The notes beneath the pieces are model-generated. The model was not told where the DNA came from. It saw only the letters and a list, made by a program, of their open reading frames with translations, and ran no database searches. Both the position numbers and the translations under genes were made by a program. Positions 13,812-54,825 of a stretch of 60,000 nucleotides of DNA are shown here, in pieces. Each line of letters begins with the position of its first letter. Position 1 is the first letter of the stretch. Where the stretch lies: NCBI RefSeq assembly GCF_037042905.1, contig NC_087245.1, forward strand, positions 14,696,001 to 14,756,000. Direction: 5' to 3'. The stretch is from Lytechinus pictus (lineage: Eukaryota).

Positions 13812-14425
13812 CGAAATGTAGTTTTGTACATTATATCTTGTTGGAATATTCAACATTGATGCCCCAGCCCGAGTAGTACTTTTATGTACATGTAGTAAGG
13901 TACTCTGCATGAGCATGTACATACATGTAATACTGTACAGACCTGTATTATGCATACAGGTTTTATGATGAAACTTGTCAAGATCAAATACAGCGTACAC
14001 ATGGAACAGATGTGTGATTGTTTGCTCAGAGTTGAAATCAGTACTTGATAATGATAATGTTGAAATATTCTTTGTTTACTTCTCTTAAAATAGTTTCAGT
14101 GATAATGAAACAAACCAGTGTGACACACCGGCCTTTCGATCTCTCAGTGTCGTGCTTGGTCCAACGATGATTTAATCCCCCCTTTTATCGTGATGCTTTT
14201 TGTATATTTATGTGAAACTTCATAGAGAGGATTTTTTACAATATATGACTGTTACATGTATGTAGTTATTGTTATTTTCTTCTCTGTTTCTTTCTGCAGT
14301 GTGAATCTTTACCACGTGCATTTAAGATATTGGTTGGTACTTTTTCTTTAGACATACTGTAGTTGATACATTTCTAACTGCTTCAAAGAGCTTTGCAATA
14401 AAAAAGCAACTAATTTACATTATTA

Positions 14426-17200: not shown

Positions 17201-20200
17201 CATGTAGTACATGTATGAGGATATGCATTGTGCTTATAGAACTAATTTGATCATCTATCAACAAAATTGATTTTGTTTTTTCCCCCTCTACATTTCTTTA
17301 TTGCCCCATCTCCAAATGAATTTTTGGTAACATGTACATACTGGTAGGTGTGGTATGTTTTAAACTGCCTCTTCTTAAGTATGTGTACTGAATTTGTGAC
17401 GTACAAAATAGAGATATTATAATATTTGTAGTTGAAAACTAGCAAACAATATAATCAGCATGGTAAAATCTTTATATGAAGTTTTACCATCACTTCTACA
17501 TAGAATAAAGTACTGTAACAAAAACACTGTCACTATTATTGTATAAAAAAATCCTTTGTCAGTACCTACATGTAGATTTGTTTTTTCCCAGGGTTTTTCC
17601 CATGAATTTCTTTTTTCTTCCTTTTTATTCAAATTCAGATAAATTGTTGGATTGGAAAAGTAGTATAGTTGTTTTCGACTGGTAACTGTTTAGTTAAACT
17701 CAAATTGTTGCGTGTACAGGCAAAAGTCACTATTAATGAAATTTATCTATACATAGTAATCTAAAAAACAATAAAACATTTAAAAGTCAAAGTAATATAA
17801 TGGAATGTTGTGCTTATTTAATTGCTTCAACATTTCCTTAGTACAGATTAGCTTAAAAATGTGTCACGTACATGTATGTTGTACAGGTATGTAATTTGTG
17901 TGATATCATATAACCACTTGCAAGGTCAGCTACATGTACATTCAGAGAATTATGACATTCACTACTGAACACAGGAATGCTGCAAAAATATGGGTGTGTT
18001 AAAGTGCAGTAAATTTGCAGTGGGAGTATTATCATCTGCAACAGATGTACACAATATTTCTCACCACTTTAGAAAATGGTGATGAATGAGTGAGGCATTG
18101 AGAAAATTAGAAGGTTTGTGATTACTGCATCATGATTAATCCAGTGATTCAGATTTAAAAATCACACCAATGCTTATCAGAAACTATAAATGGTCTCACG
18201 ATATTCATATCAATTCACTTTGACGAAGTATTCTTTTATGATTGCACATACATGTAGACTATACATGTACATTCACGTTTTTTTATATTGTGAATTTTGA
18301 TCTGAAGATGAACATGGACTATCTCCAGCAAGCAACTGTAAGTTAATACTTGCTTCACTTTCACAGAAAATGGTTTTGATTGCTGTCTCTAGTCTAAGAG
18401 AGATGATTTTCAGAATCCATCTACTTTGTTGTGTTATTTTTAGCCTAAACCTCTATCCTTACACCCATTGAACTTGATATTTGAACTAAAAGAACTTAGG
18501 TTTGAGAGTCCACTTTTGAGATGTGAAGCTGAATACATGTAGCTGATTTCAGTTCTTTATTAATGCTATTTTTAAGGGATTTTTGTGTGTGAATGCAGGT
18601 GTACATAAGGAGTTTTGCACTTTCAGTTTTTGTTGTTCAACAGCTCTTTTTTTGTGATGACACACGAAAAGGGGTATAAATCTCATTATGCAAAATCAAT
18701 TTACTGGTAGTTTAAAACTGTAAGTAGTATGTTAATAGTTGTGATATTGTTTTTGATCAATATGCATCCTTCTTTTTGTAGAAAGTTGTGTTTAATTGAT
18801 CAGAACTTCCTATCTCAAATGATATGATATTAATATTTATTTTAAATAATGAATTTCACAGATGAACTTCCATGATAACAATAAATTTCATGTACACCTG
18901 TATAATTATCCGTAATATTGCATCTGATCATGGATGCTTGGATGGGATTGATAATGGTAGCTGTTATGAGTATACATTTGAATATAATTGGATTCTCTGA
19001 ATGGAAGTATTCTGATGTGGAGAAAAGTTGTTGTTTTTTTTCTTCAAAATCTCCTTATTTTGAAAACCCGCCTTGATGCAGCACAAATCCTTGACATGAA
19101 GTGCACATTGACACTGACATTTGTAGGTTTAGACCACACACAAATATTTCCAGAGTTATGTGTGTTTCTTTCACCTTTCTTCTCTATATTTTACACAGGT
19201 CTTTACTTTATACTCCACAATTGTACAAGTTTGTTTACATGGGAAATTAGCTGTAGGGTCTTTATGATTCTATAGAAATTTACAGGCTTTTGTGTGCCTG
19301 CGTGGAGGTGTGTCTCTATCCACAAAGCATGACCCAAATATCTTTTAGCTTGTGGACTAGACCACTTTAAAAGTTTTTAAATTCTTTCATTCTTTTCAAG
19401 TTTGTTGTCACTGAATTCAGTTAAAGATTTCCTTCGAAGTTACCATGCACATGTACACATGTAGTACAGGGCACACAGCACACTGAAGAGTGGTTTTGAG
19501 GAGTAGGCCTACACGTACATTGTAGTTTACAGCATATTACTTTTTGGGACAGTACTGAATATTCATGAAACTAAAGCAAGTTTGACGTAAACAAAAATGT
19601 ATTTTTTTACAAACTACACGTTCATATCTGGGTGATACTTTGTAACTAGGGGATATGTTTTCCATGAATATTTTCCCAGGTATTAATTAGAAAATATTAT
19701 GTGATATCCATGTCCAATATTTTAATAACATTATTTAATACAAAATGACAGAGGCTCTTCTCTGCTCATTGCTCAGATCCTAACAAAAAAAATAACTTTC
19801 ATTTATTTAAACATGGAAAGCAGTAATCTTGGATGCCTAAATTAATATTGATCACAGTGCACATACAAGGATGGAACCTGTACAGTCTCATGGTCTTTTT
19901 CATGATTGAAAATACATCCCTTTTTGGTCAAGATTGAATGAATTCTTTCTATTATTCTGTGAGCTATGCTTACACTTCAGTTATATTTACACAGCACTGT
20001 CATTTGTTTAGGAGATCTATTCAGTCTACATTCTTGGAGTAAGATCTGACACCTCTCTGTTGTCTTCTTGTTCTGACTTCAAATTGCTAAGCAAATGTTT
20101 ATTAAGAGAATGGTCCTACAAGTGTAGTGACAGAATTTCTCAAATATGCATGTAGGCCTATACAGGTAGGTTCATTGATAAACGTAAAGAAGAAGAAAAA

Positions 20201-24736: not shown

Positions 24737-25893
24737 GTAAGTTTCTGCATTGAATGTTTATTTGTTTTGACCTTGTTAAAGGTAAAGATCACCCTGATTT
24801 GATCAGGAAAAGAAGGGGGTGGGGGTCCTTAACATCCCTGGTTTTGGTGATGAACTTAACTTACCCATTACACCGAATAAGGTTTTTCTTTTGTTTTACT
24901 TTAAGTATGGAATATGTTGTATGCAATGTTAAAATCGGCTCGGTTGACAAATTTAAGGGGGATAGGAAAGAAATGTTTATAATGATAGTCAAGAGGGATT
25001 GTAGTTTAACTTCAACTTTATTTTTTATTCTTAACTTAACTGTGGTCTAAAGATGTGGTTTGAATATCAATAGCCAACTGACACAAATCTCTGACAGTAT
25101 AGGTTCCATTTGTCAGCTCGTCTATCACTAAGATCATTCATAACTGTAATAACTGAATTAGTTTCTTCCCTATTATAGCATGAAGAGAGATCACAGTGAA
25201 CATAAGAATCATACAATGTTAACAAAATTTAGACATTTTTGGCTTCTCCTAATTTTAGCAGAGAGTTAGACCATGGCCTATTTAAGTCAAACCAGACTTC
25301 AGAATGTGTGCCTTTAAAGTACAAGTAGGTCTATCACAAATGGGGTGAGAAGGGAACTCTTAACCAATTGGACTAGTCAATAAGCTGAAGTACATTTCAC
25401 AGTCTATGATATTAGAGTCTATACTAGATATTGGAGCCTATACTAATAAATTATATTTTAACTCTACTCATCCTCTTTGTTAGCATAGTTTGGTGCTCAT
25501 AATAAATTCTGCTTCCCTTTGAAAATGTCAGTATTGTTTACATTCATGTATTGTTAATTATGATTTTGGATTTCTTTCCCTCTCCTTCCCCTTTTTTTTC
25601 TTTATTTACTTTTTATTCCTGTCTAGGCCTAAATGTTCATATTTTGTATTACGTTATTTATCATTCTGTCTTTTAACACTTTGTGTATAGCTCTCTCTCT
25701 TTTCTCTCTTAATCTCCCCACCCACCTTCTATTTGTCTGCCTCTCTGTTTACCCCCCCCCCTCTCCCCCCTCTCCCTCTCTCTCTTTCTTTTACTCCTGT
25801 CTCTCCCCATTTTTTTTTTTTGGAACTAGTTCTTTAATGTTTTGAATATGTGGACATCATAATTTATTCCTTATTTTTAATTGTGTTGATCAG

Positions 25894-26035
25894 ATTCGAG
25901 TGAAGAGGGATCAGGTGCAACCTAAGGAGATGCTACACTTCCCCAAGATGAATGACATGATGAAGGATCTATCAGATGGATGTTGCTTAGCAACCATTAT
26001 TCATCATTACTATCCTCATCTTCTATCATTAGAAG
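25894..26035 (+). CDS. CAMSAP: CAMSAP coding exon 6 (IRVKRDQVQPKEMLHFPKMNDMMKDLSDGCCLATIIHHYYPHLLSLE), CH domain
   Basis: CAG|...G|GTTAGC, phase 0-1. FP...D...D.SDG..L...IH.Y.P CH motif. Confidence 0.93.
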
Positions 26036-26754
26036 GTTAGCAAGATTATACCCTCCTCTTGCATATTTGTAACTTGTGACATGTTGTTAATTGCATCAGT
26101 ATGCCCACTGCTTCACTCTTGGAGATAACTGGATTTGAGATAGTCATATTCATATGTTGTGCTCCAAGACTGACATTTACAGACTACTCAATAATCTAAT
26201 CCGTATGCATACAATCAGTGACATACATGTATGCTCTCCCTCCCACCCCTCAACCCACTTGCTACTGATGATCTGTACAAAGGCCATGTCTTTAATAATA
26301 TCAAGGAATATTTTTCATTATTCATTTTACTAATTTTACTTTACAAAGCTACACTCTTAAATATGGTGAAGACTCCCTGTGGTATTTTTTATTTAGCTAC
26401 TTCATTCCCCTAATAATGATTATTGTATTTTTTTTCTTGACATGTATTTTTATATAATGTCTACCAATATAGTTCTATGACTAAACCATCCATTCGTGAA
26501 TAGTTCTCTGAATGTACACCATAACTAAACATAGTTGCTTGATCATAAACTTTAACATAAAAGTCCCATATGAAGCACACCTCAGTACCCTTTTGACTCC
26601 CCCATTCCTCTCATATAAGAATTGTACAGTGGACAGCCTAACAGTAAAGCTGTTTTGCTCTTGTCAAAGTCTGTTTTTACTCAATATTTCAAATTTTTAT
26701 GGCAAGAGTTGTGTTTTTACCCAACTTTTCCTATTTTTATTCCATTATTTTTAG

Positions 26755-26973
26755 ATGTGGCTCTGCATGAGTCAATGTCGTTAGCTGATTCGCTGCACAA
26801 CCTTCAGGTGGTGACGTCTTTCTTCCAGCGTAACCTACCCCATCTCCTTCACTTCACATTGGAAGATCTACTCTACTGCCATGAATCCATGAAATACAAC
26901 ATTGTGGCGTTGGTCGCAGAGATGTTCTGGTGCTTTGAGGTGGAGAAACCCAGCCATCTAGAAGCGAATCAAG
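26755..26973 (+). CDS. CAMSAP: CAMSAP coding exon 7 (DVALHESMSLADSLHNLQVV...FTLEDLLY...VAEMFWCFEVEKPSHLEANQ), end of the CH domain
   Basis: TAG|...G|GTAAGC, phase 1-1. S.ADSL.N and TLED.LY...AE.FW.FE..KP motifs. Confidence 0.95.
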
Positions 26974-27279
26974 GTAAGCACCTGACACCGGTTAGGTGGT
27001 TTGAAGCCCCGAGTTTAGTTTAGCCAGTGTGTAGTGTGTTTTGTAAAAGTTACGTTGAATAATGCCTGAGGTATACATTTAGGGTTTGGTTTTCAGGAAC
27101 ACACACATTAAACAAGTTAGCAGTTTAGAACTTAAGTTCAATGTTTGTACTTTGTACTGATGTGAAAGTCACATTAATTTATGCTCTAGGTATTGTACCC
27201 ATTAACAACTAATAATTAGCAGTTTAGAATTCAATGTTCATTGTCAGTATTGATGTTCAAGTTATTTAAGTGTTCTAAA

Positions 27280-27833
27280 AAGAGAAAAATCCAACAAGCA
27301 CAACACTGAAAATATCATCAAAATCGGATGTAAAACAAGAAAGTTGTGACATTTTTAAGTTTCGCTTCATTTCACAAAATTGTTATTTGCACATCCCGAT
27401 CGGTATGCAAATGAGGGAACTGATTACATCACTCACTCACTCACTATTTCTTTTGTATTTTACTATATTGAATAATCTAATTTTCTCCTCATTGTCCTGA
27501 GAAACAAAGTTGTATTCCTCCCTGAACATGTGGAATTACCATTGTTTAACATTTTATGATTCAGTCAGTTGGTCCTTATCGTCAAATCTGTAAAATTTAA
27601 ATATTGTATAATTCAAACAATAAAGAGCAAAGAAATAGTGAGGGACATCATCAATTCTCTCATTTGCATGTGACTAAATTGTGCATGTAACTATTTTTTG
27701 AAAAATAGGCAAAAATTAAAATGTAATAACTTTTTTATTTTACATCAAATTTTGAGATTTTCAGCATAATGCTTGTCTGATTTTTCTCTATTGATTCAAA
27801 TCAACATTTTTCTGAGGTGGACTTGACCTTTAA
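27280..27833. mobile_element. Kolobok-like non-autonomous element (one end truncated)
   Basis: Ends CCTTTAA. Internal inverted arms (CATCAAAATCGGATGTAAAACAAGAAAGTTGTGACATTTT vs AAAATGTAATAACTTTTTTATTTTACATCAAATTTTGA). Related fragment at ~52020-52242. Confidence 0.55.
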
Positions 27834-29423
27834 TGAGATAACAGAACAAAGAAGAGTGCAGTGATAAAGTTTTAGTACAGGGATTTTTTTTTTTTTGGGG
27901 GGGGTTGGGGGTGGATGCAAATTAACAACCAATATTGCTCATCAAATATAATATCTGTTCGATATTGGTGCAATGAGGCATTCATAATTCTCTTGATTTT
28001 TGTGATGTGAACATTTTTATGACATGGCTATAGAAAAGTAGAAGATGTTTTTTTTTTTTAGTTCAGTCCTTATTACCTTAAAAGTTCCATTAATTAGAAT
28101 CATGTTTTATTGCAATTATTGTTGCAGTGTCACCAGTTTTGTTGAAATTCTCTGGTAGATGTTATACCAGATAAATAATTTAAATAAATAAATAATCCAA
28201 ATATATAATTCAAAGAGAGAAGAAGAACAAATAAATAAAATGAAAAGAGATAAAGATCTAACTTCTGTTCAGGTTTCTTGAATAGACAATTTGAATAATG
28301 AGATAAATATTGTAATTCTGTTGTATGACTAGAAAATGTTTTAACAAAAAAGGAAGACAAGGTCAAATTAAAAGAAGTAAAAATTGTAAATAAGTTCTCT
28401 TTGGGTTTTATTTTGAGGCATTTATCAATATCTTACATTCATAAAATGCCTTGCAATTAATCTACCTTCCAAAGTTGCTCAGACCTTTTGGTGTTTCCAG
28501 GCCAAACCGGCTGGCCTTGCTGGCTTAGGTAAGCACTTCCATGAAACATATCAAGCAAGAACATTGAGACTGAAAAACAAAATGATAAATGGGCACCAAA
28601 TGCATGCTCCAATGGATGGCTACATTTCAATAGTAATCAAGATTCTTTGCAGGATTGTTCCACTGATCTTTTCTCCAGTCAATAGTATGTTTATAATATG
28701 CTTTGAAAACAGCAGTAGGCATTCTATTCCATATCTGCTATTTCCAGAATTAAAGGTCCTTGCCTTGTAATAACTTAGTAACATTGAAACTCAATGCTAA
28801 AGCAGAGATAATAGGGTACATTTTCGTTTTTATTGCATGTTTTATCAGATAAAGTGTAGAGTCTGATCTTTCAGCATGGATTGGTTCTTTTCTTCTCTGC
28901 TTGAGGTTTAGAATATTATTACCACTTTAAATTGCATTTTCTTTAAATATATAATTTTTAAACTTTCTTCTTTAGTGCATGTTTTCCCACCAATGGAATT
29001 TGACAGTGCAGTTTGATATGAAAAAAAGCATTGAATTAAAGAATGTTGCTTGAATTATGAATGTATTAGGCAAAAAGGTAATCTTTAATTGCATTTAGGA
29101 GGTGAATGTTTTTTAATCATTTCCAGGATGTAGTATTCCTTACTTAGTGAATGATAATCTCATAAACAATTAATAATTCACTTTATTCCTTTTGTAAAAA
29201 TTATTTTATCTACTTTGAATTCCTTAAAAAATAACAATGTATGAAATCATAAATTCTAGCAAATCTTATACCCTAGATAGTCTATTACTGAGGGTAGTTC
29301 ATTTTAGTAATGAGAACCTCTATTAATTACTGCAAAAAATATTAGCATCCATTTCTTTTCAATTTATTTCTTCTAATTTACGCAAAATTTCAAATTATAC
29401 AAATTACAAAGTGATAATGATGG

Positions 29424-30387
29424 TTTTTGTCTCACCTGCATAGCAGAGTGAGACTATAGGCGCCGCTTTTCCGACGGCGGCGGCGGCGGCGACGGCGGCG
29501 TCAACACCAAATCTTAACCTGAGGTTAAGTTTTTGAAATGACAGCATAACTTAGAAAGTATATGGACCTAGTTCATGAAACTTGGCCATAAGGTTAATCA
29601 AGTATTACTGAACATCCTGCCTGAGTTTCATGTCACATGACCAAGGTCAAAGGTCATTTAGGGTCAATGAACTTAGACCATGTTGGGGGAATCAACATCA
29701 AAATCTTAACCTAAGGTTAAGTTTTTGAAATGTCATCATAACTTAGAAAATATATGGACCTAGTTCATGAAACTTATACATAAGGTTAATCAAGTATCAC
29801 TGAACATCCTGCATGAGTTTCACGTCACATGACCAAGGTCAAAGGTCATTTAGGGTCAATGAACTTTGGCCGAATTGGGGGTATCTGTTGAATTACCATC
29901 ATAACTTTGAAAGTTTATGGATCTGATTCATGAAACTTGGACATAATAGTAATAAAGTATTACTGAACATCCTGTGCAAGTTTCAGGTCACATGATCAAG
30001 GTCAAAGGTCATTTAAGGTCAATGAACTTTGGCCAAATTGGGGTATTTGTTGAATTACAGCCATAAATTTGAAAGTGTGTTGGTCTAGTTCATAAAACTT
30101 GGACATAATAGTAATCAAGTATCACTGAACATCCTGTGCGAGTTTCAGGTCACATGATCAAGGTCAAAGGTCATGTAAGGTCAAAGAACTTTGGCCACGT
30201 TGGGGGTATTTGTTGAATTGCCATCATATCTCTATAAGTGTATTGGTCTAGTTCATAAAACGTGGACATAAGAGTAACCAAGTATCACTGAACATCTTGT
30301 GCGAGTTATAGTAGTTTTCAAAATCAGCACTGCTGCTATATTGAATCGCGTGATGCAGGTGAGATGGCCAGAGGCATTCCACTTGTT
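29424..30387 (+). mobile_element. Helentron-associated non-autonomous element (HINE/DINE-1-like) with ~5 tandem core units of 160-180 bp
   Basis: Inserted in a T-run. Subterminal IRs TCTCACCTGCAT (29430-29441) / ATGCAGGTGAGA (30353-30364), 5' GTCTCAC..GTGAGAC hairpin, (GGC)n microsatellite, units starting ~29545, 29726, 29900, 30062, 30224. Confidence 0.82.
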
Positions 30388-31252
30388 CTTTTTTGTAAAG
30401 CTCTTTGTTAATTAATTTACACATGACTTGTGACCTGTTGTTGTGCTATAGGAGAAACTTCAATTCTTTTCTTATTTTAGCATAACTTCCATTTTTTCTT
30501 ATTTCAGCATAATAGTCTGAATGAGTTTCCTTTAACCCTTATCAAATTTTGACAAAATCATACACTTTGCATTTAATTGCTTATTGAAAACAATAATGTT
30601 GATATACAAAGATCATATTTCAACTAAGCTGATGATTCAGAATGATAAAGAATCTGATTTGCCACCCTAAAACAGGTCACGATTTTCCTGAAAAGCTGTG
30701 CATCACTTACAAACAGCTTTATGAAACACAACAAGTTCTCTCTCAGTCTTAATTCAAAGCTGCTTTCCCGAGCTGCTCTCCCAATTCTAAGAACATGTTA
30801 CTATTTTTGGATTGAGAATTCCAAGAATATTAATATTGAAACTAATGTTCCGCGAACTAATAATTCCTTTAACTTCAGCTTTAAAAGATTATAATTTTTT
30901 TGTTACACAAAATTAATTTACAATCAATTGAAATTCGTAATTGATTATTTTAGGGATACCTGATAAATTTTCTGAATTCTGTTAAAAGAAGAAGACCAAC
31001 AATCAGTTTGATATTGGTTTGATATTAATTTTTACAATATTTGATTTTGAATTGCAATTGATTGCAAGTTTCTTGCAAATGCCCACAAGCTATACCCTAT
31101 GAAAAGCCTGAGTCTCAAGCTGGTGCTGTTAGAAGTAGAAGTGGCATACTGGCTTTAAATATATCAGATTTGAGCTTCAGTAGATAGACTTTGTGAGATG
31201 CGTTCACCTGATCATTTAACTGTTAGCATTAACTTACTCCATTATTTTTTAG

Positions 31253-31415
31253 GAGGGATTCAGTCATCTGCGTTTACACAGATGAACACACCACTGAACA
31301 CGGCAGCAAGGCCTCCTATCCCTATCAGTGATGCAACAAAGAGAAGCTTTCATGCCCCATCGCCCAAGGCGGAAATGCAGAGCGTCGATCTCACCAAAGT
31401 TCCTTCGAGTCCAAA
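31253..31415 (+). CDS. CAMSAP: CAMSAP coding exon 8 (GIQSSAFTQMNTPLNTAARPPIPISDATKRSFHAPSP...)
   Basis: TAG|...AA|GTAAGC, phase 1-2. RPP.PIS.ATKRSF is conserved in CAMSAPs. Confidence 0.92.
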
Positions 31416-31652
31416 GTAAGCTATTTTGATAAAAAGAAATGTTCATTTATTCAGAAAAGTGCAAAGTGTTTTTATGAAATTGATTTTTGATAACATTCAT
31501 TTCAGAGGGCTTTATGCTAGCAGGTTACCTCTAATGTTGATATAAACTTTTCAATCATACCTGTGATCTTGGGAATTTAGTCTTCTTTATAATTATCTTT
31601 CCTCATTGAATCTCAAATGTTGTGAGATTGATATGTCACAGAATTATTCATA

Positions 31653-35372: not shown

Positions 35373-38300
35373 GACGCCAGACACAGCAACATTTACAAGG
35401 CCAAGAAGATTACAGGAATCTCCCACAGTGAACATGCAGTCTAGCCGGGCTGGGAGTCTTCTTGCCAACGTTAGCATCGACAGCGAGATGAACGAGAGTC
35501 AAGACTTCTCTGGTCTGGATATTGAGATCAACCCCCTTCCAGAGAGAATGGGTTTTCTAAATACCCAGGGACAGCAGCACAGTGAGGACAGGTTAATGAC
35601 ATTGACCCAGCAACGACCTGTTACCCAGGAGGGCCAGTTGGAAAGCGAGGACTTGGAAGTTGAAAGCTTGACATCATCAAGGATGTCTCGGCAGCAAGGA
35701 GGTTTCGGTGAAACCAAGGAGTCATTCAACCCGATGCTCACCCACAGAACTGATCCTGTCATGAATGGTGTCGATGGAAGTCTGGGTGCAACATCCAGTC
35801 CAGGGACTTTTAGAGGTAGTCAGAGAGAACATTTAGACAGTGCTATGAGCCCATCATCAGAAGCTGGCAGTGTGGATTCTTCAATATCTAGGAAGAACCT
35901 GAAGCTGGATGTCCATCCTGTGGATATTCTAGGTTCTCCCCGTGGTCCAACCAATGAGTTCATGCCTGCTGTAGTACGACCGTTAAAAGAGAAATCGCAT
36001 CAGGTCAGAAAGACAGATGAAAGGGGAGATCACTTGAGGCATCGTAATAAGCACAGAACAGGTGATACCAGAATGACTGCTGCTCACCAACAATATCCTG
36101 ACCAGGGAAGTGATTCCTCAGAGAGTGTGGATGCAACAACACCCCTGAGTGGAGAGAGTATTGCAGATTCCCTGGCAGGGGATCTTGCTCTGCAACGGGC
36201 TCGTATTGCAAGAGGAGTTGGGCCAGGTGGCTTCATGTTGGCTCCTGCTTCTCAGAGTAACCAACCTCAAGTGGCTAAAGGTAAACATGGTGAGGCTTTC
36301 TTTATCAGTGGGAGTGAACGACCGCTTCAGGATGATGGTCACCACAGTTTTAGTGCCCCCACAGGAGCTAAGAGTTTCACTATATCTGAAGGAGCCATGA
36401 CGATGGATGATGCAAAGGAGGCTGGTATCCCAGTAGTATCGGCATCCAGATCTATGCAAGGTCTGAGTGAGCAAGGTTTCCGCATGAGACCAGGTGGAAT
36501 GACCAGCAGTCAATCTGACCAGGAAATCTACCAGCCACGTCCTCAACATTCCCACTCCTTCCAGAACCCAGTCTCTTCAGCCGCTGCACCTTCATCCTTG
36601 CCATATTCCATGCATGATTCATATTCCAACCCTCATAATCCTCACCAGTATCAACCTAATCCACAATTCAATCCTCAATCCTCTAACCCCCAGCATGCTA
36701 ATCCTCACCACGGTAATCCCCACCATGGTAATCCTCATTCCAATCCCCATGGAAATCCTCACCATGACTTTCGCACTCACTCCCCGCACCACCACATTTC
36801 TCAACCTAACCCGTATGACCAACAGATCGACCCTGAGGCCTATGTTCACGATCAACATGGTGTCTCTACTTGGGGACACCATCAGAAGCAACAACAGCAA
36901 CAGTTTCATCCTCACTCTACTAATCCAGGTATGTCACAATCCTTTACTAATCATTCTAACACCCCTGCTAATCATCAAGACGTAGAGTCGCCCAAGCTGA
37001 CTGCGGAAACAGTACAGTCTGAACATCAGGATAAGAGACCTGTAGTCATGGATTTCTCTCATAATCTTAGCCCTGTCCAGAAAGAAAATGGATATTGTCC
37101 TAGTGATGAGAGAAATACCCCTGTCACTATGTCGCATAGTGGTGCCATACTAACACAAGACCATATTAACCATCCCAATCCTGTTCATTCACATCCAACT
37201 ATAGATCAACTGTCTGGTTCAGAAAGACCTTCTAATATGGAACATCATAATTCAGTAGAACAGAATAGAAATAGTTATACTAATCCTCACACATTTGCAG
37301 CAGATGTAGAGAACTTCCATTCTAACCAATCTGCTTTCAGGGAGCCTGCTAACCATTCTATGACCACCTGGTCTGCCAAAACCAAACAATCACCTAATAC
37401 TGAATTTCCTACCACTTCCACTTTTTCTGTAACACCAACTAACACAGGTGCAGCAGGCAATGGATATCACATCAGTTCTGGAGAAACAAAGGCTGGAGAT
37501 GGGAGAGTTTCGTCATCTGAATTGACTCACGTAAGGCTCAGGCTGGAGGAGAAAAGGAGATTGATGGACTATGAAAGGCACAAGCTCGAACGCCAGTGGA
37601 ATAAGCAAAGGCAACGGGTTGGCAAGGCTGCATTCCTGCAGGTGTTGGCAAATAAAAAGCAGGAGAAAGAAGGAAATGGTGAAAGTTACTCAAGATCAGA
37701 ACAACAGAGGAACATAGAAAATGCTCGCCCACCACAAGGGTTGACCACTTTTGCAGCCCTTAGCGCCAATCGTGAGAAGACACCTCAGGTGTCACAAGAG
37801 CCTCCTGTATCAGAACAAGAACAATACCAGCACCCTATCCAGGATAAACAGTTGACACAAGCGTATTTTCTTGCACAGCAGAACCAAATGTCCCAACAAA
37901 CGGCCCAGAAAACCCCTCTTAACCAACAGCCACCACCAGAGCATCGTGCTCAGCAGCCCAGCCCAAGTCACCTCAATCAGGTACAAATGGCTGAAGGTGG
38001 ACGAAGGTCCAATGAGAGTCCAAGATCAGGGAGGGACTCAGAGAGCCCACGTATGAGGTCAGAGTCACCAGGTCCCAGGAGAACTGAGAGTCCAGGATCC
38101 AGTTCTGGGTCCCATTCGCCGCATCTTACCCAAGAGGAGTACAACACTTCTCTAGAAAAATTAAATGCTAATCTTTCCCAACTCCAAAATCAAATTCTGA
38201 GGTTATCCTTGCAGCAAGAAGAGTTCAAGAAGGGTATGAATGAATCTCCAAGACAGGTACAGGAATCACCAAGGCAAGTGGCACAAGGAGATTTTGGTGA

Positions 38301-39108
38301 CCAGCGAGATAGTCCAGAGCACCGAGATGTCCATAGACCCCCATCCCATCCTCAGCAAGATTCAACTGGTCAAATGACTGGATTCTACATCGAAAGTGGG
38401 GATCAAAAGCCTTCAGAACAAGATTCGTATGTCCTTGAAGAAAATCCTGCTTTCAATATACCCCAGGGGCAGGGAATCAGTCCCCAAGAAATGCAGCATA
38501 TTCAGCAATCACCCCAAGGATTCTCGTTATTACCGCATAACCAACCAATTGACAATTTTAATGAAAAGCAAACATCGAATGCACAGAGATTATCAGACGC
38601 CACTTACATAAAATCTGAAATGAACGATAACAAGTATATAATTCCAGACAATCTTGAACATGATACTGTTGTTGCCAATGCCCAAATAGAAAGAACATTC
38701 AGTGGGCAGAATCTGAATATAGACAATGAAAATCAATCACAACTCAAGCAAATGCCAACTGAAGAAGTTCATTCACCTCCTGCGAATCAGAGGAAAGGGC
38801 AGCCTATCATGGCTTTTGACATTGATATGGGATCTCCAAAGCAACCTCGAGCACCTCCTGCAAACCAGAGAAAGAGGGAAGCAACACCAAAGAAAGTACA
38901 GGAGAAGAAATCGTCGCCTCCTAGAACACCCGTCAAGAAGCAGGCTCCACCGTCTGTTTATGAAATTGTAGGTGAAGGAGAAGAAGATGTTCCTGTTCCA
39001 AGTGATATGGTAGTGCGCCCTCTTGAGCAGGTGAATGCAAGTAAGGATGATGATTCCGCAGATACAAGTGGAATGGCTGCAGGATTTATCATTGGAGAAG
39101 ATGACAAG
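35373..39108 (+). CDS. CAMSAP: CAMSAP coding exon 10: 3736-nt exon encoding a disordered region plus coiled coils CC1 and CC2
   Basis: TAG|G ACG CCA... in frame with the 1229-aa ORF; donor AAG|GTCAGT. CC1 SELTHVRLRLEEKRR...QRQRVGKAAFLQV; CC2 SLEKLNANLSQLQNQILRLSLQQE; ends GFIIGEDDK. Confidence 0.95.
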
Positions 39109-54203: not shown

Positions 54204-54683
54204 TCATTGTTCCATCATTGAAATAATAACATGATCATCCCTCCGTTGCCATAGCATTTCTCCTTCAAAATCGATCAGTCCTTGCTTTCTGGCACGCATC
54301 AAAATCCCCACGAGTTTATTTGAGATTTTCGAGTACAATTCGAAGAGCTTCCCGAAATGAATCCAATAATAGACGCTCCCGTCGTCAGCTGTCTCTCGAT
54401 GACCGGACTGTTTCATAATGGCGACCAGTTGCTTGATCTCGCCACTGATGCGCTCCCCCGCCATCTGACCTCGTATGGCCGTCATCGAACCTTCCATGGG
54501 ACGGGCATAGTTGGGGTCGTCTTTGTCCAGCTTCGCCCTGGTCGACGCCCCCGCCCATTCTGAGAATGGGTTGATGAGTTGTTTGTTCTTGTGCTCGTTC
54601 TCAACGTTTTTCCATTTGGCTATCCTACTGCTCAAGCTCCCACCCGACTCTCGATCTACCCCGTCGTTTATGTCGAGATCCAT
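54204..54683 (-). CDS. ABRA: Actin-binding Rho-activating protein (ABRA/STARS), Costars domain, 159 aa, single coding exon
   Basis: KQLINPFSE...Y.RP.EGS.TA.RG...FGKLFELYSKISNKLVGILMRARKQGLIDFEGEMLWQRRDDHVII matches the ABRA C-terminal region. In-frame TAG upstream of the ATG. Minus-strand acceptor (CTAAT...GGCAG) with the exon starting at 54725. Confidence 0.93.
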   Translation of the reverse strand: MDLDINDGVDRESGGSLSSRIAKWKNVENEHKNKQLINPFSEWAGASTRAKLDKDDPNYARPMEGSMTAIRGQMAGERISGEIKQLVAIMKQSGHRETADDGSVYYWIHFGKLFELYSKISNKLVGILMRARKQGLIDFEGEMLWQRRDDHVIISMMEQ

Positions 54684-54825
54684 GTTTAGATCAGCAATCT
54701 AGCTCCTTTTGATGCGTAATACTATCTGCCAATGATTAGAAATTTGAAGAAATACATATTTAATGAAGAAAATAAAACTACAATCGAGGGAGCCTCTAGG
54801 GAAGGCACAAAACCAGGCAGATTTT

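Follow-up and report, generated by a model that had tools for sequence, protein, structure and literature searches.

A conserved optional exon of sea urchin CAMSAP, most likely derived by partial tandem duplication of the last CH-domain exon

The intron that follows the last CH-domain exon of a sea urchin CAMSAP gene contains a short stretch resembling the end of that exon. Is it an old copy, is it used as an exon, and what might it add to the protein? We analysed these questions in a 60,000-nucleotide stretch of Lytechinus pictus DNA (the window; all positions refer to it) that carries one CAMSAP/Patronin gene on the + strand, the single gene of this kind in the sea urchin. CAMSAP/Patronin proteins bind microtubule minus ends. 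The L. pictus protein P0026 maps exactly onto 19 exons of the window, from 6734 to 48037. The constitutive exon at 26755..26973 (+ strand, 219 nt, phase 1-1), hereafter the parent exon, encodes the end of the CAMSAP CH domain (CAMSAP_CH, Pfam PF11971, E 6.5e-11, 42 bits with a cut-off of 27); it is exon 7, or exon 8 when a 33-nt microexon at 14300 is counted. PF08683 and PF17095, which we take to be the C-terminal CKK domain and the CC1 region, are precomputed on proteins matching the window gene and, as judged from sequence, the gene has the CH domain, CKK domain and CC1 region of a CAMSAP/Patronin.

Other features of the window were also observed. Two alternative phase-0 microexons lie at residue 123 (14300-14332, 33 nt, and 18308-18337, 30 nt); urchin isoforms have one, the other or neither, and never both among those examined. 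The 33-nt microexon is present in all three urchin species analysed and the 30-nt one in both Lytechinus, while the sea-star and crinoid isoforms listed have neither. Some isoforms splice within the 3.7-kb exon at 35374-39108: P0001 and P0004 are without ~170 residues of its middle, a situation we liken to mouse marshalin with its long and short forms. On the minus strand, 54207-54698 holds an open frame of 164 codons that reads like a small conserved protein and presumably resembles an ABRA/Costars-type C-terminus.

The cassette exon (28475..28528, + strand, 54 nt, phase 1-1) sits 1.5 kb into the intron after the parent exon, and was delimited by similarity tests, in-silico splicing and RefSeq peptides. 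With its junction codon it encodes 18 residues, VAQTFWCFQAKPAGLAGL, and is a diverged copy of the final ~20 codons of the parent exon (VAEMFWCFEVEKPSHL); within the parent exon the copied part (26913-26973, + strand) covers residues 315-334, which form the C-terminal half of the closing helix. Splicing 28475-28528 in silico reproduced the junction peptides of the database, and the next constitutive exon (31253..31417, 3' end approximate, + strand, encoding GGIQSS...PPIPISDATKRSF...) accepts either donor. The cassette donor, GTAAGCAC (28529..28536, + strand), is the same as the parent-exon donor (26974-26981). On the + strand the 60 kb contain the 10-mer AGGTAAGCAC just twice, at 26972 and 28527, and beyond 8 intron bases the resemblance to the intron after the parent exon is lost. 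Upstream lies a conserved intronic 3' splice-site region (28441..28474, + strand) with a weak AAG acceptor at its end; the acceptor AG probably falls within the once-coding sequence of the copy. Re-reading the sequence confirmed the translation, the coordinates, the identical AG|GTAAGCAC donors, phase 1 and the synonymous codon differences given in the preliminary description of the locus.

The cassette segment is single-copy in the genome according to DNA and protein searches, both of which give lower bounds. The 23-aa segment had no match in Pfam, and 26700-31500 had none in Rfam. A TGCATG at 28601, presumably an Rbfox-type motif, is one of 43 in the window and lacks significance (p about 0.10). 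Neural microexons of the Srrm/eMIC type are ≤27 nt long, carry a conserved UGC just upstream of the acceptor and are included specifically in neural tissue; the cassette exon, at 54 nt, is beyond the length limit of this class. TGC is present at 28447 and 28452, and the Strongylocentrotus purpuratus residues in register (Y, P-P) imply that both have changed in that species.

The segment 28475-28528 is a real, conserved and optional exon of urchin CAMSAP. Among the urchin CAMSAP proteins listed, 22 of 31 include VAQTFWCFQAKPAGLAGL and 9 skip it, with both forms in each of three species (L. pictus, L. variegatus and S. purpuratus). This set holds 15/21 and 15/16 members of two big clusters among those listed, and several of the 31 are re-annotations of the same gene. 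The RefSeq models are predictions. Inclusion and skipping are known at the level of database models, and at that level the exon is frame-compatible and alternatively spliced. In the S. purpuratus XP_0308302xx set, X1, X2 and X4-X7 carry the exon and X3 does not; in L. variegatus, X1-X3 and X5-X8 carry it and X4 does not; in the L. pictus XP_0547523xx.1 set, X1, X3, X4 and X6 carry it and X2 does not. In the other L. pictus set, whose next exon has the allele of the window, 5/5 models listed are skip forms. Inclusion is represented by XP_054752387.1, XP_041476211.1 and XP_030830237.1, and skipping by XP_063952874.1, XP_041476178.1 and XP_030830234.1. The copy had been called hidden, but it already stands in RefSeq models of three species; the RefSeq names of the exon-bearing isoforms give no origin or function for it.

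The 18 residues are identical between L. pictus and L. variegatus (18/18) and nearly so between L. pictus and S. purpuratus (17/18). Between the latter two species, identity is 67/70 in the parent exon and 46/54 in the next exon, and L. variegatus and S. purpuratus share 88% over the whole protein. The 17/18 conservation could reflect splicing signals and not protein function. In an older S. purpuratus model, P0017, the exon extends 26 codons further upstream. When P0017 was back-translated, the last 33 nt before 28475 showed at least 6 differences from the window (a lower bound), and none of 2,070 control intron positions matches these 33 nt as well (minimum 11); the 45 nt further upstream are unrelated between window and P0017. 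The acceptor region is therefore conserved, and the longer 111-nt exon from 28418, proposed earlier as a second route, is not: it occurs in no L. pictus or L. variegatus protein examined, and P0017 matches the window only over those 33 nt. The S. purpuratus extension also contains an MKY like that of the parent; it was not counted, as a 3-codon gap is required.

A further route had been proposed, in which an internal donor at 26939 joins an acceptor at 28501, so that the helix would receive a different tail. The same CAG acceptor, used with the exon-7 donor, would give a 28-nt exon (28501..28528, + strand; sequence and in-silico frame) that shifts the frame to an early stop, that is, a poison exon. 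Both products are possible on paper, and the pyrimidine tract in front of the CAG at 28498-28500 is fair (14/20, vs 13/20 before the AAG site). However, GAG|GTGGAG is a poor donor, the swap junction is found in 0 of the proteins examined, and the parent exon is intact in each of the 22 inclusion proteins. Neither the proteins nor the reads examined support the acceptor at 28501, although a poison form would leave no trace in proteins. We regard either product as extremely unlikely. Mutually exclusive use of the two exons was rejected on the same 22/22 proteins and the 0 swap forms.

We next consider whether the cassette exon is homologous to the parent exon. Against the parent-exon end, VAQTFWCFQAKPAGLAGL scores 47 (BLOSUM62), a value reached by 0 of 20,000 shuffles (maximum 40), and its score against the whole skip isoform was equalled by 0 of 3,000 shuffles. 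Among in-frame, stop-free, phase 1-1 AG..GT candidate exons of 30-90 nt, 28475-28528 ranks first (43; next 28) when compared with 1,399 from elsewhere in the window; of 2,021 18-mers taken from other parts of CAMSAP, the highest reaches 26. These results weigh against chance, a possibility raised earlier for so short a match. The copy keeps V315, A316, F319, W320, C321, F322, K326, P327 and L330; it has changed M318, which is buried and hydrophobic in all aligned homologues, to T, and has lost the conserved acidic residues E317 and E323, both replaced by Q. Homology is limited to the exon itself, and the NLPSK upstream is intron. Neither the 5' part of exon 7 (215/300 shuffles as good) nor the parent's downstream intron (114/300 shuffles as good) has left a remnant that we could find. 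Over 15 codons, pS against the parent is >1 (saturated) and pN is 0.24. The synonymous-type divergence reported earlier is thus real, but it is partly built in because the match was chosen on protein similarity. Saturation excludes a recent copy; alone it cannot tell an old duplication from chance, and it is no independent proof of selection.

These data also bear on the idea that the exon arose de novo from the intron, its likeness to the parent being chance or convergence aided by T-rich sequence of the splice-site kind. Only ~9 residues are identical, with gaps; no DNA homology extends beyond the exon and 8 donor bases; the synonymous divergence does not discriminate; and across the whole 4.3-kb intron the best match, 52, is reached in 9 of 1,000 Markov-simulated introns (intron-wide p about 0.009). 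On the other side, none of the 20,000 composition-preserving shuffles reaches the observed score, the matching sequence is the end of the neighbouring exon, phase and 10-nt donor are identical in the two, and the best fit is to residues specific to urchins. A de novo origin is very unlikely, and by sequence similarity the cassette exon appears homologous to the adjacent exon of the same gene.

The urchin specificity emerged when 164 distinct CAMSAP helix tails were scored against VAQTFWCFQAKPAGLAGL: the two urchin tails were best (47; mean 23.6). Other deuterostome tails scored 15 (Holothuria), 22 (Acanthaster), 13 (Asterias), 14 (Antedon) and 25 (Glandiceps), and three vertebrate tails 21-32. 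The helix reads FHVFE in Holothuria, FYWFE in Acanthaster, FHYFE in Asterias, FYLTE in Antedon, FWYME in the hemichordate and FWWFE in most vertebrates. The best fit to the urchin version of the helix makes a partial tandem duplication in echinoids, with the donor kept and an internal acceptor gained, the most likely origin. The tail of the vertebrate-like protein P0268 carries FWCFE and scores 43, so the dating of the duplication is not airtight. The conservation sought in other echinoderms holds within urchins, at 17/18 in S. purpuratus, but not beyond, the insert being absent in 31/31 annotated proteins of other echinoderms and the hemichordate. Protein searches brought up no further echinoids (cidaroid, diadematid or Paracentrotus), and the date is bracketed only loosely. 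Among 328 scorable CAMSAPs (30 of 358 were dropped for having no scorable tail or <30 residues after it), only the 22 urchin inclusion forms (44-45) and P0264 (88) repeat their own helix; the next scores 27, and none of the vertebrate proteins examined repeats its closing helix. In P0264 the entire last CH exon is repeated almost exactly, through either a recent duplication or an artefact of assembly.

RNA was read over 25800-29400 in three stranded raw runs (~6% of each) and one contig run. This range stops before the tandem repeat at 29501-30307, and the joints 28528>31253 and 26973>31253 lie outside it. Depth over 28462-28582 was 0 in X19 and X20, vs 20 and 17.5 on the parent exon; a rough upper bound on inclusion from the two runs is 8-15%. 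In X21 it was 0.25 at the cassette-exon bin, within the intron background (0.06-0.79), with 4-6 on the parent exon, whose depth across the three runs is 4-20. In the contig run X14, from a related organism, a 6,940-nt contig spans the parent exon and not the cassette exon. The depth counts against constitutive or frequent inclusion in these samples. With no sign of inclusion in three RNA runs, the exon is probably restricted to certain tissues or stages. A repeat at 27276-27833 dominates the joint and loose-end tables of these runs and masks splice joints. It is a high-copy dispersed intron repeat, possibly a MITE, with an RNA depth of several hundred on both strands and joints to the opposite strand. 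Another repeat element, at 29472-30307, contains tandem units of 192 bp and 163 bp as well as a short stretch of CGGCGG.

What might the insert do to the protein? Using alignments of 40 sequences, in which no other sequence carries the insert, we modelled L. variegatus isoforms with AlphaFold: the N-terminal 367 residues of the skip form and 385 of the include form. The folded part is the same in both forms, with pLDDT about 97 in the closing helix (305-325); in the insert, pLDDT is <50 from residue 338 and a weak helix is predicted at 334-341. According to these models the insert would add to the helix closing the CH domain and leave the core unchanged. With T in place of the buried M318 and Q in place of E317 and E323, the copy would make a weaker helix, unlikely to replace the native one. 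No solved structure was found by sequence. A Foldseek search with the N-terminal 330 residues placed alpha-actinin and plectin best (E 0.003-0.01), with no row at E <= 0.001; residues 1-330 (window 6734-26973) are thus predicted to resemble the tandem CH pair of alpha-actinin/plectin actin-binding domains. CAMSAP is described with a single CH domain in the available text of PMC4016758.

Two readings of the insert compete with a functional tail. In the first, the exon has the same origin but is a near-neutral spacer: its splice signals are constrained and the in-frame insert is tolerated in a disordered linker. The low confidence of the insert and the unchanged core in AlphaFold suit this reading, as do conservation of the flanking intron, low or nil inclusion in four RNA runs, and a linker whose length past the helix differs among animals. 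However, V, A, F, W, C, F, K, P and L are kept despite saturated synonymous sites (subject to ascertainment), the 17/18 identity is no lower than in the neighbouring exons, and to keep an exposed FWCF unused would be odd. We consider a mere spacer rather unlikely. In the second reading the copy would displace the native closing half-helix in cis, or enter a second molecule, so that the CH opens or CAMSAP dimerises. The tandem-CH actin-binding fold has open and closed states, the N-terminal 330 residues fold like such a domain, and four conserved hydrophobics are in register (V315, A316, F319 and F322). Against this, the copy has neither the buried M318 nor the conserved acids, it corresponds to just half of the helix, and the best AlphaFold model retains the native helix at pLDDT about 97. 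A swap of this kind is improbable, and so is a splice-controlled decoy helix that would compete with the native one and switch the CH between closed and open or dimeric states in certain cells. If it were true, it would provide a natural on/off pair for learning what the CAMSAP CH region does.

The closest analogue of the exon, in the available text of PMC2394523, is H2d-H2a of vertebrate COE/EBF, where the last-helix exon of a domain was tandem-duplicated in a lineage-specific manner. In both, a new splice site inside the copy creates a symmetrical exon, both helices are included, and the diverged copy leaves the core job to the ancestral helix; as in an additive helix duplication of this type, the CAMSAP acceptor lies within the copied segment and inclusion is additive. 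COE/EBF recruited a new donor and inclusion is mandatory, whereas CAMSAP gained a new acceptor and inclusion is optional (skip forms in three species, and the RNA runs). Unlike in COE/EBF, the CAMSAP copy is only a half helix and lies downstream of the parent. Substitutions by tandem exon duplication and mutually exclusive homologous exons, as treated in the accessible part of PMC8373072, likewise involve homologous neighbours of the same phase, alternative use and long conservation, but there one copy replaces the other, while the CAMSAP exon is an additive, partial insertion. The main text of that paper does not contain 'CAMSAP', and its supplements list events that may be relevant to similar cases. 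Mouse CAMSAP3/marshalin has alternative exons 5 and 6 (33 and 48 bp), likewise small in-frame cassettes by which the CH region near the N terminus varies; they are unrelated to the urchin exon, fall within the part encoded by exons 3-9 and, in the text available, are not described as duplicates (PMC3828766).

As far as the accessible text of the following papers goes, the Patronin CH domain is required for rescue at the fly NMJ (PMC10839449), PMC12912265 cites, second-hand, the binding of formin by the PTRN-1 CH and remarks that little work has been done on what the CAMSAP CH region does, and CH-domain roles are also treated in PMC12731735; the parts of PMC4016758 and PMC4943857 consulted say nothing of the cassette exon. 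No paper on the exon or its duplication, or on Lytechinus CAMSAP, was found in a literature without most subscription journals. The exon is already in automatic annotation, and its duplication origin is unnoted in the literature searched.

Our preferred reading, to which we give a probability of roughly 0.7, is a regulated cassette exon that arose by partial tandem duplication in the sea urchin lineage. RefSeq isoforms and similarity tests bear out the earlier proposal that the CH-closing segment was duplicated long ago and survives as an alternative, repeating exon, spliced by the 54-nt AAG route. Very probably, a duplication set a second copy of the 3' end of the last CH exon, donor included, ~1.55 kb downstream; this would have happened once echinoids had diverged from the remaining echinoderms but while Lytechinus and Strongylocentrotus still shared an ancestor. 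A phase-1 AAG acceptor would then have arisen inside the copy, so that the exon could be added or skipped in frame. Inclusion alongside skipping in all three species is, at the level of database models, almost certain. The last step is tentative, and we put it a little short of an even chance. The normal CH fold would be kept, the copy not replacing the native closing helix, and the 18 residues would stand in the flexible tail that directly follows the CH unit, forming a second aromatic half-helix motif (VAxxFWCF..KP), weaker than the first, and displacing the conserved PISxxTKRSF motif 18 residues outward. This motif may dock loosely on the CH unit or on partners in the tissues that include it, tuning CH-dependent interactions such as actin-linked or trafficking roles.

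As the exon is lineage-restricted, already annotated and of putative function, its general impact is modest. It illustrates neatly, on a small scale, how an optional exon can come from a partial duplication and one new splice site, and a pair of isoforms that differ by a copied half-helix, in a workable model animal, offers a ready test of what the CH surface binds.
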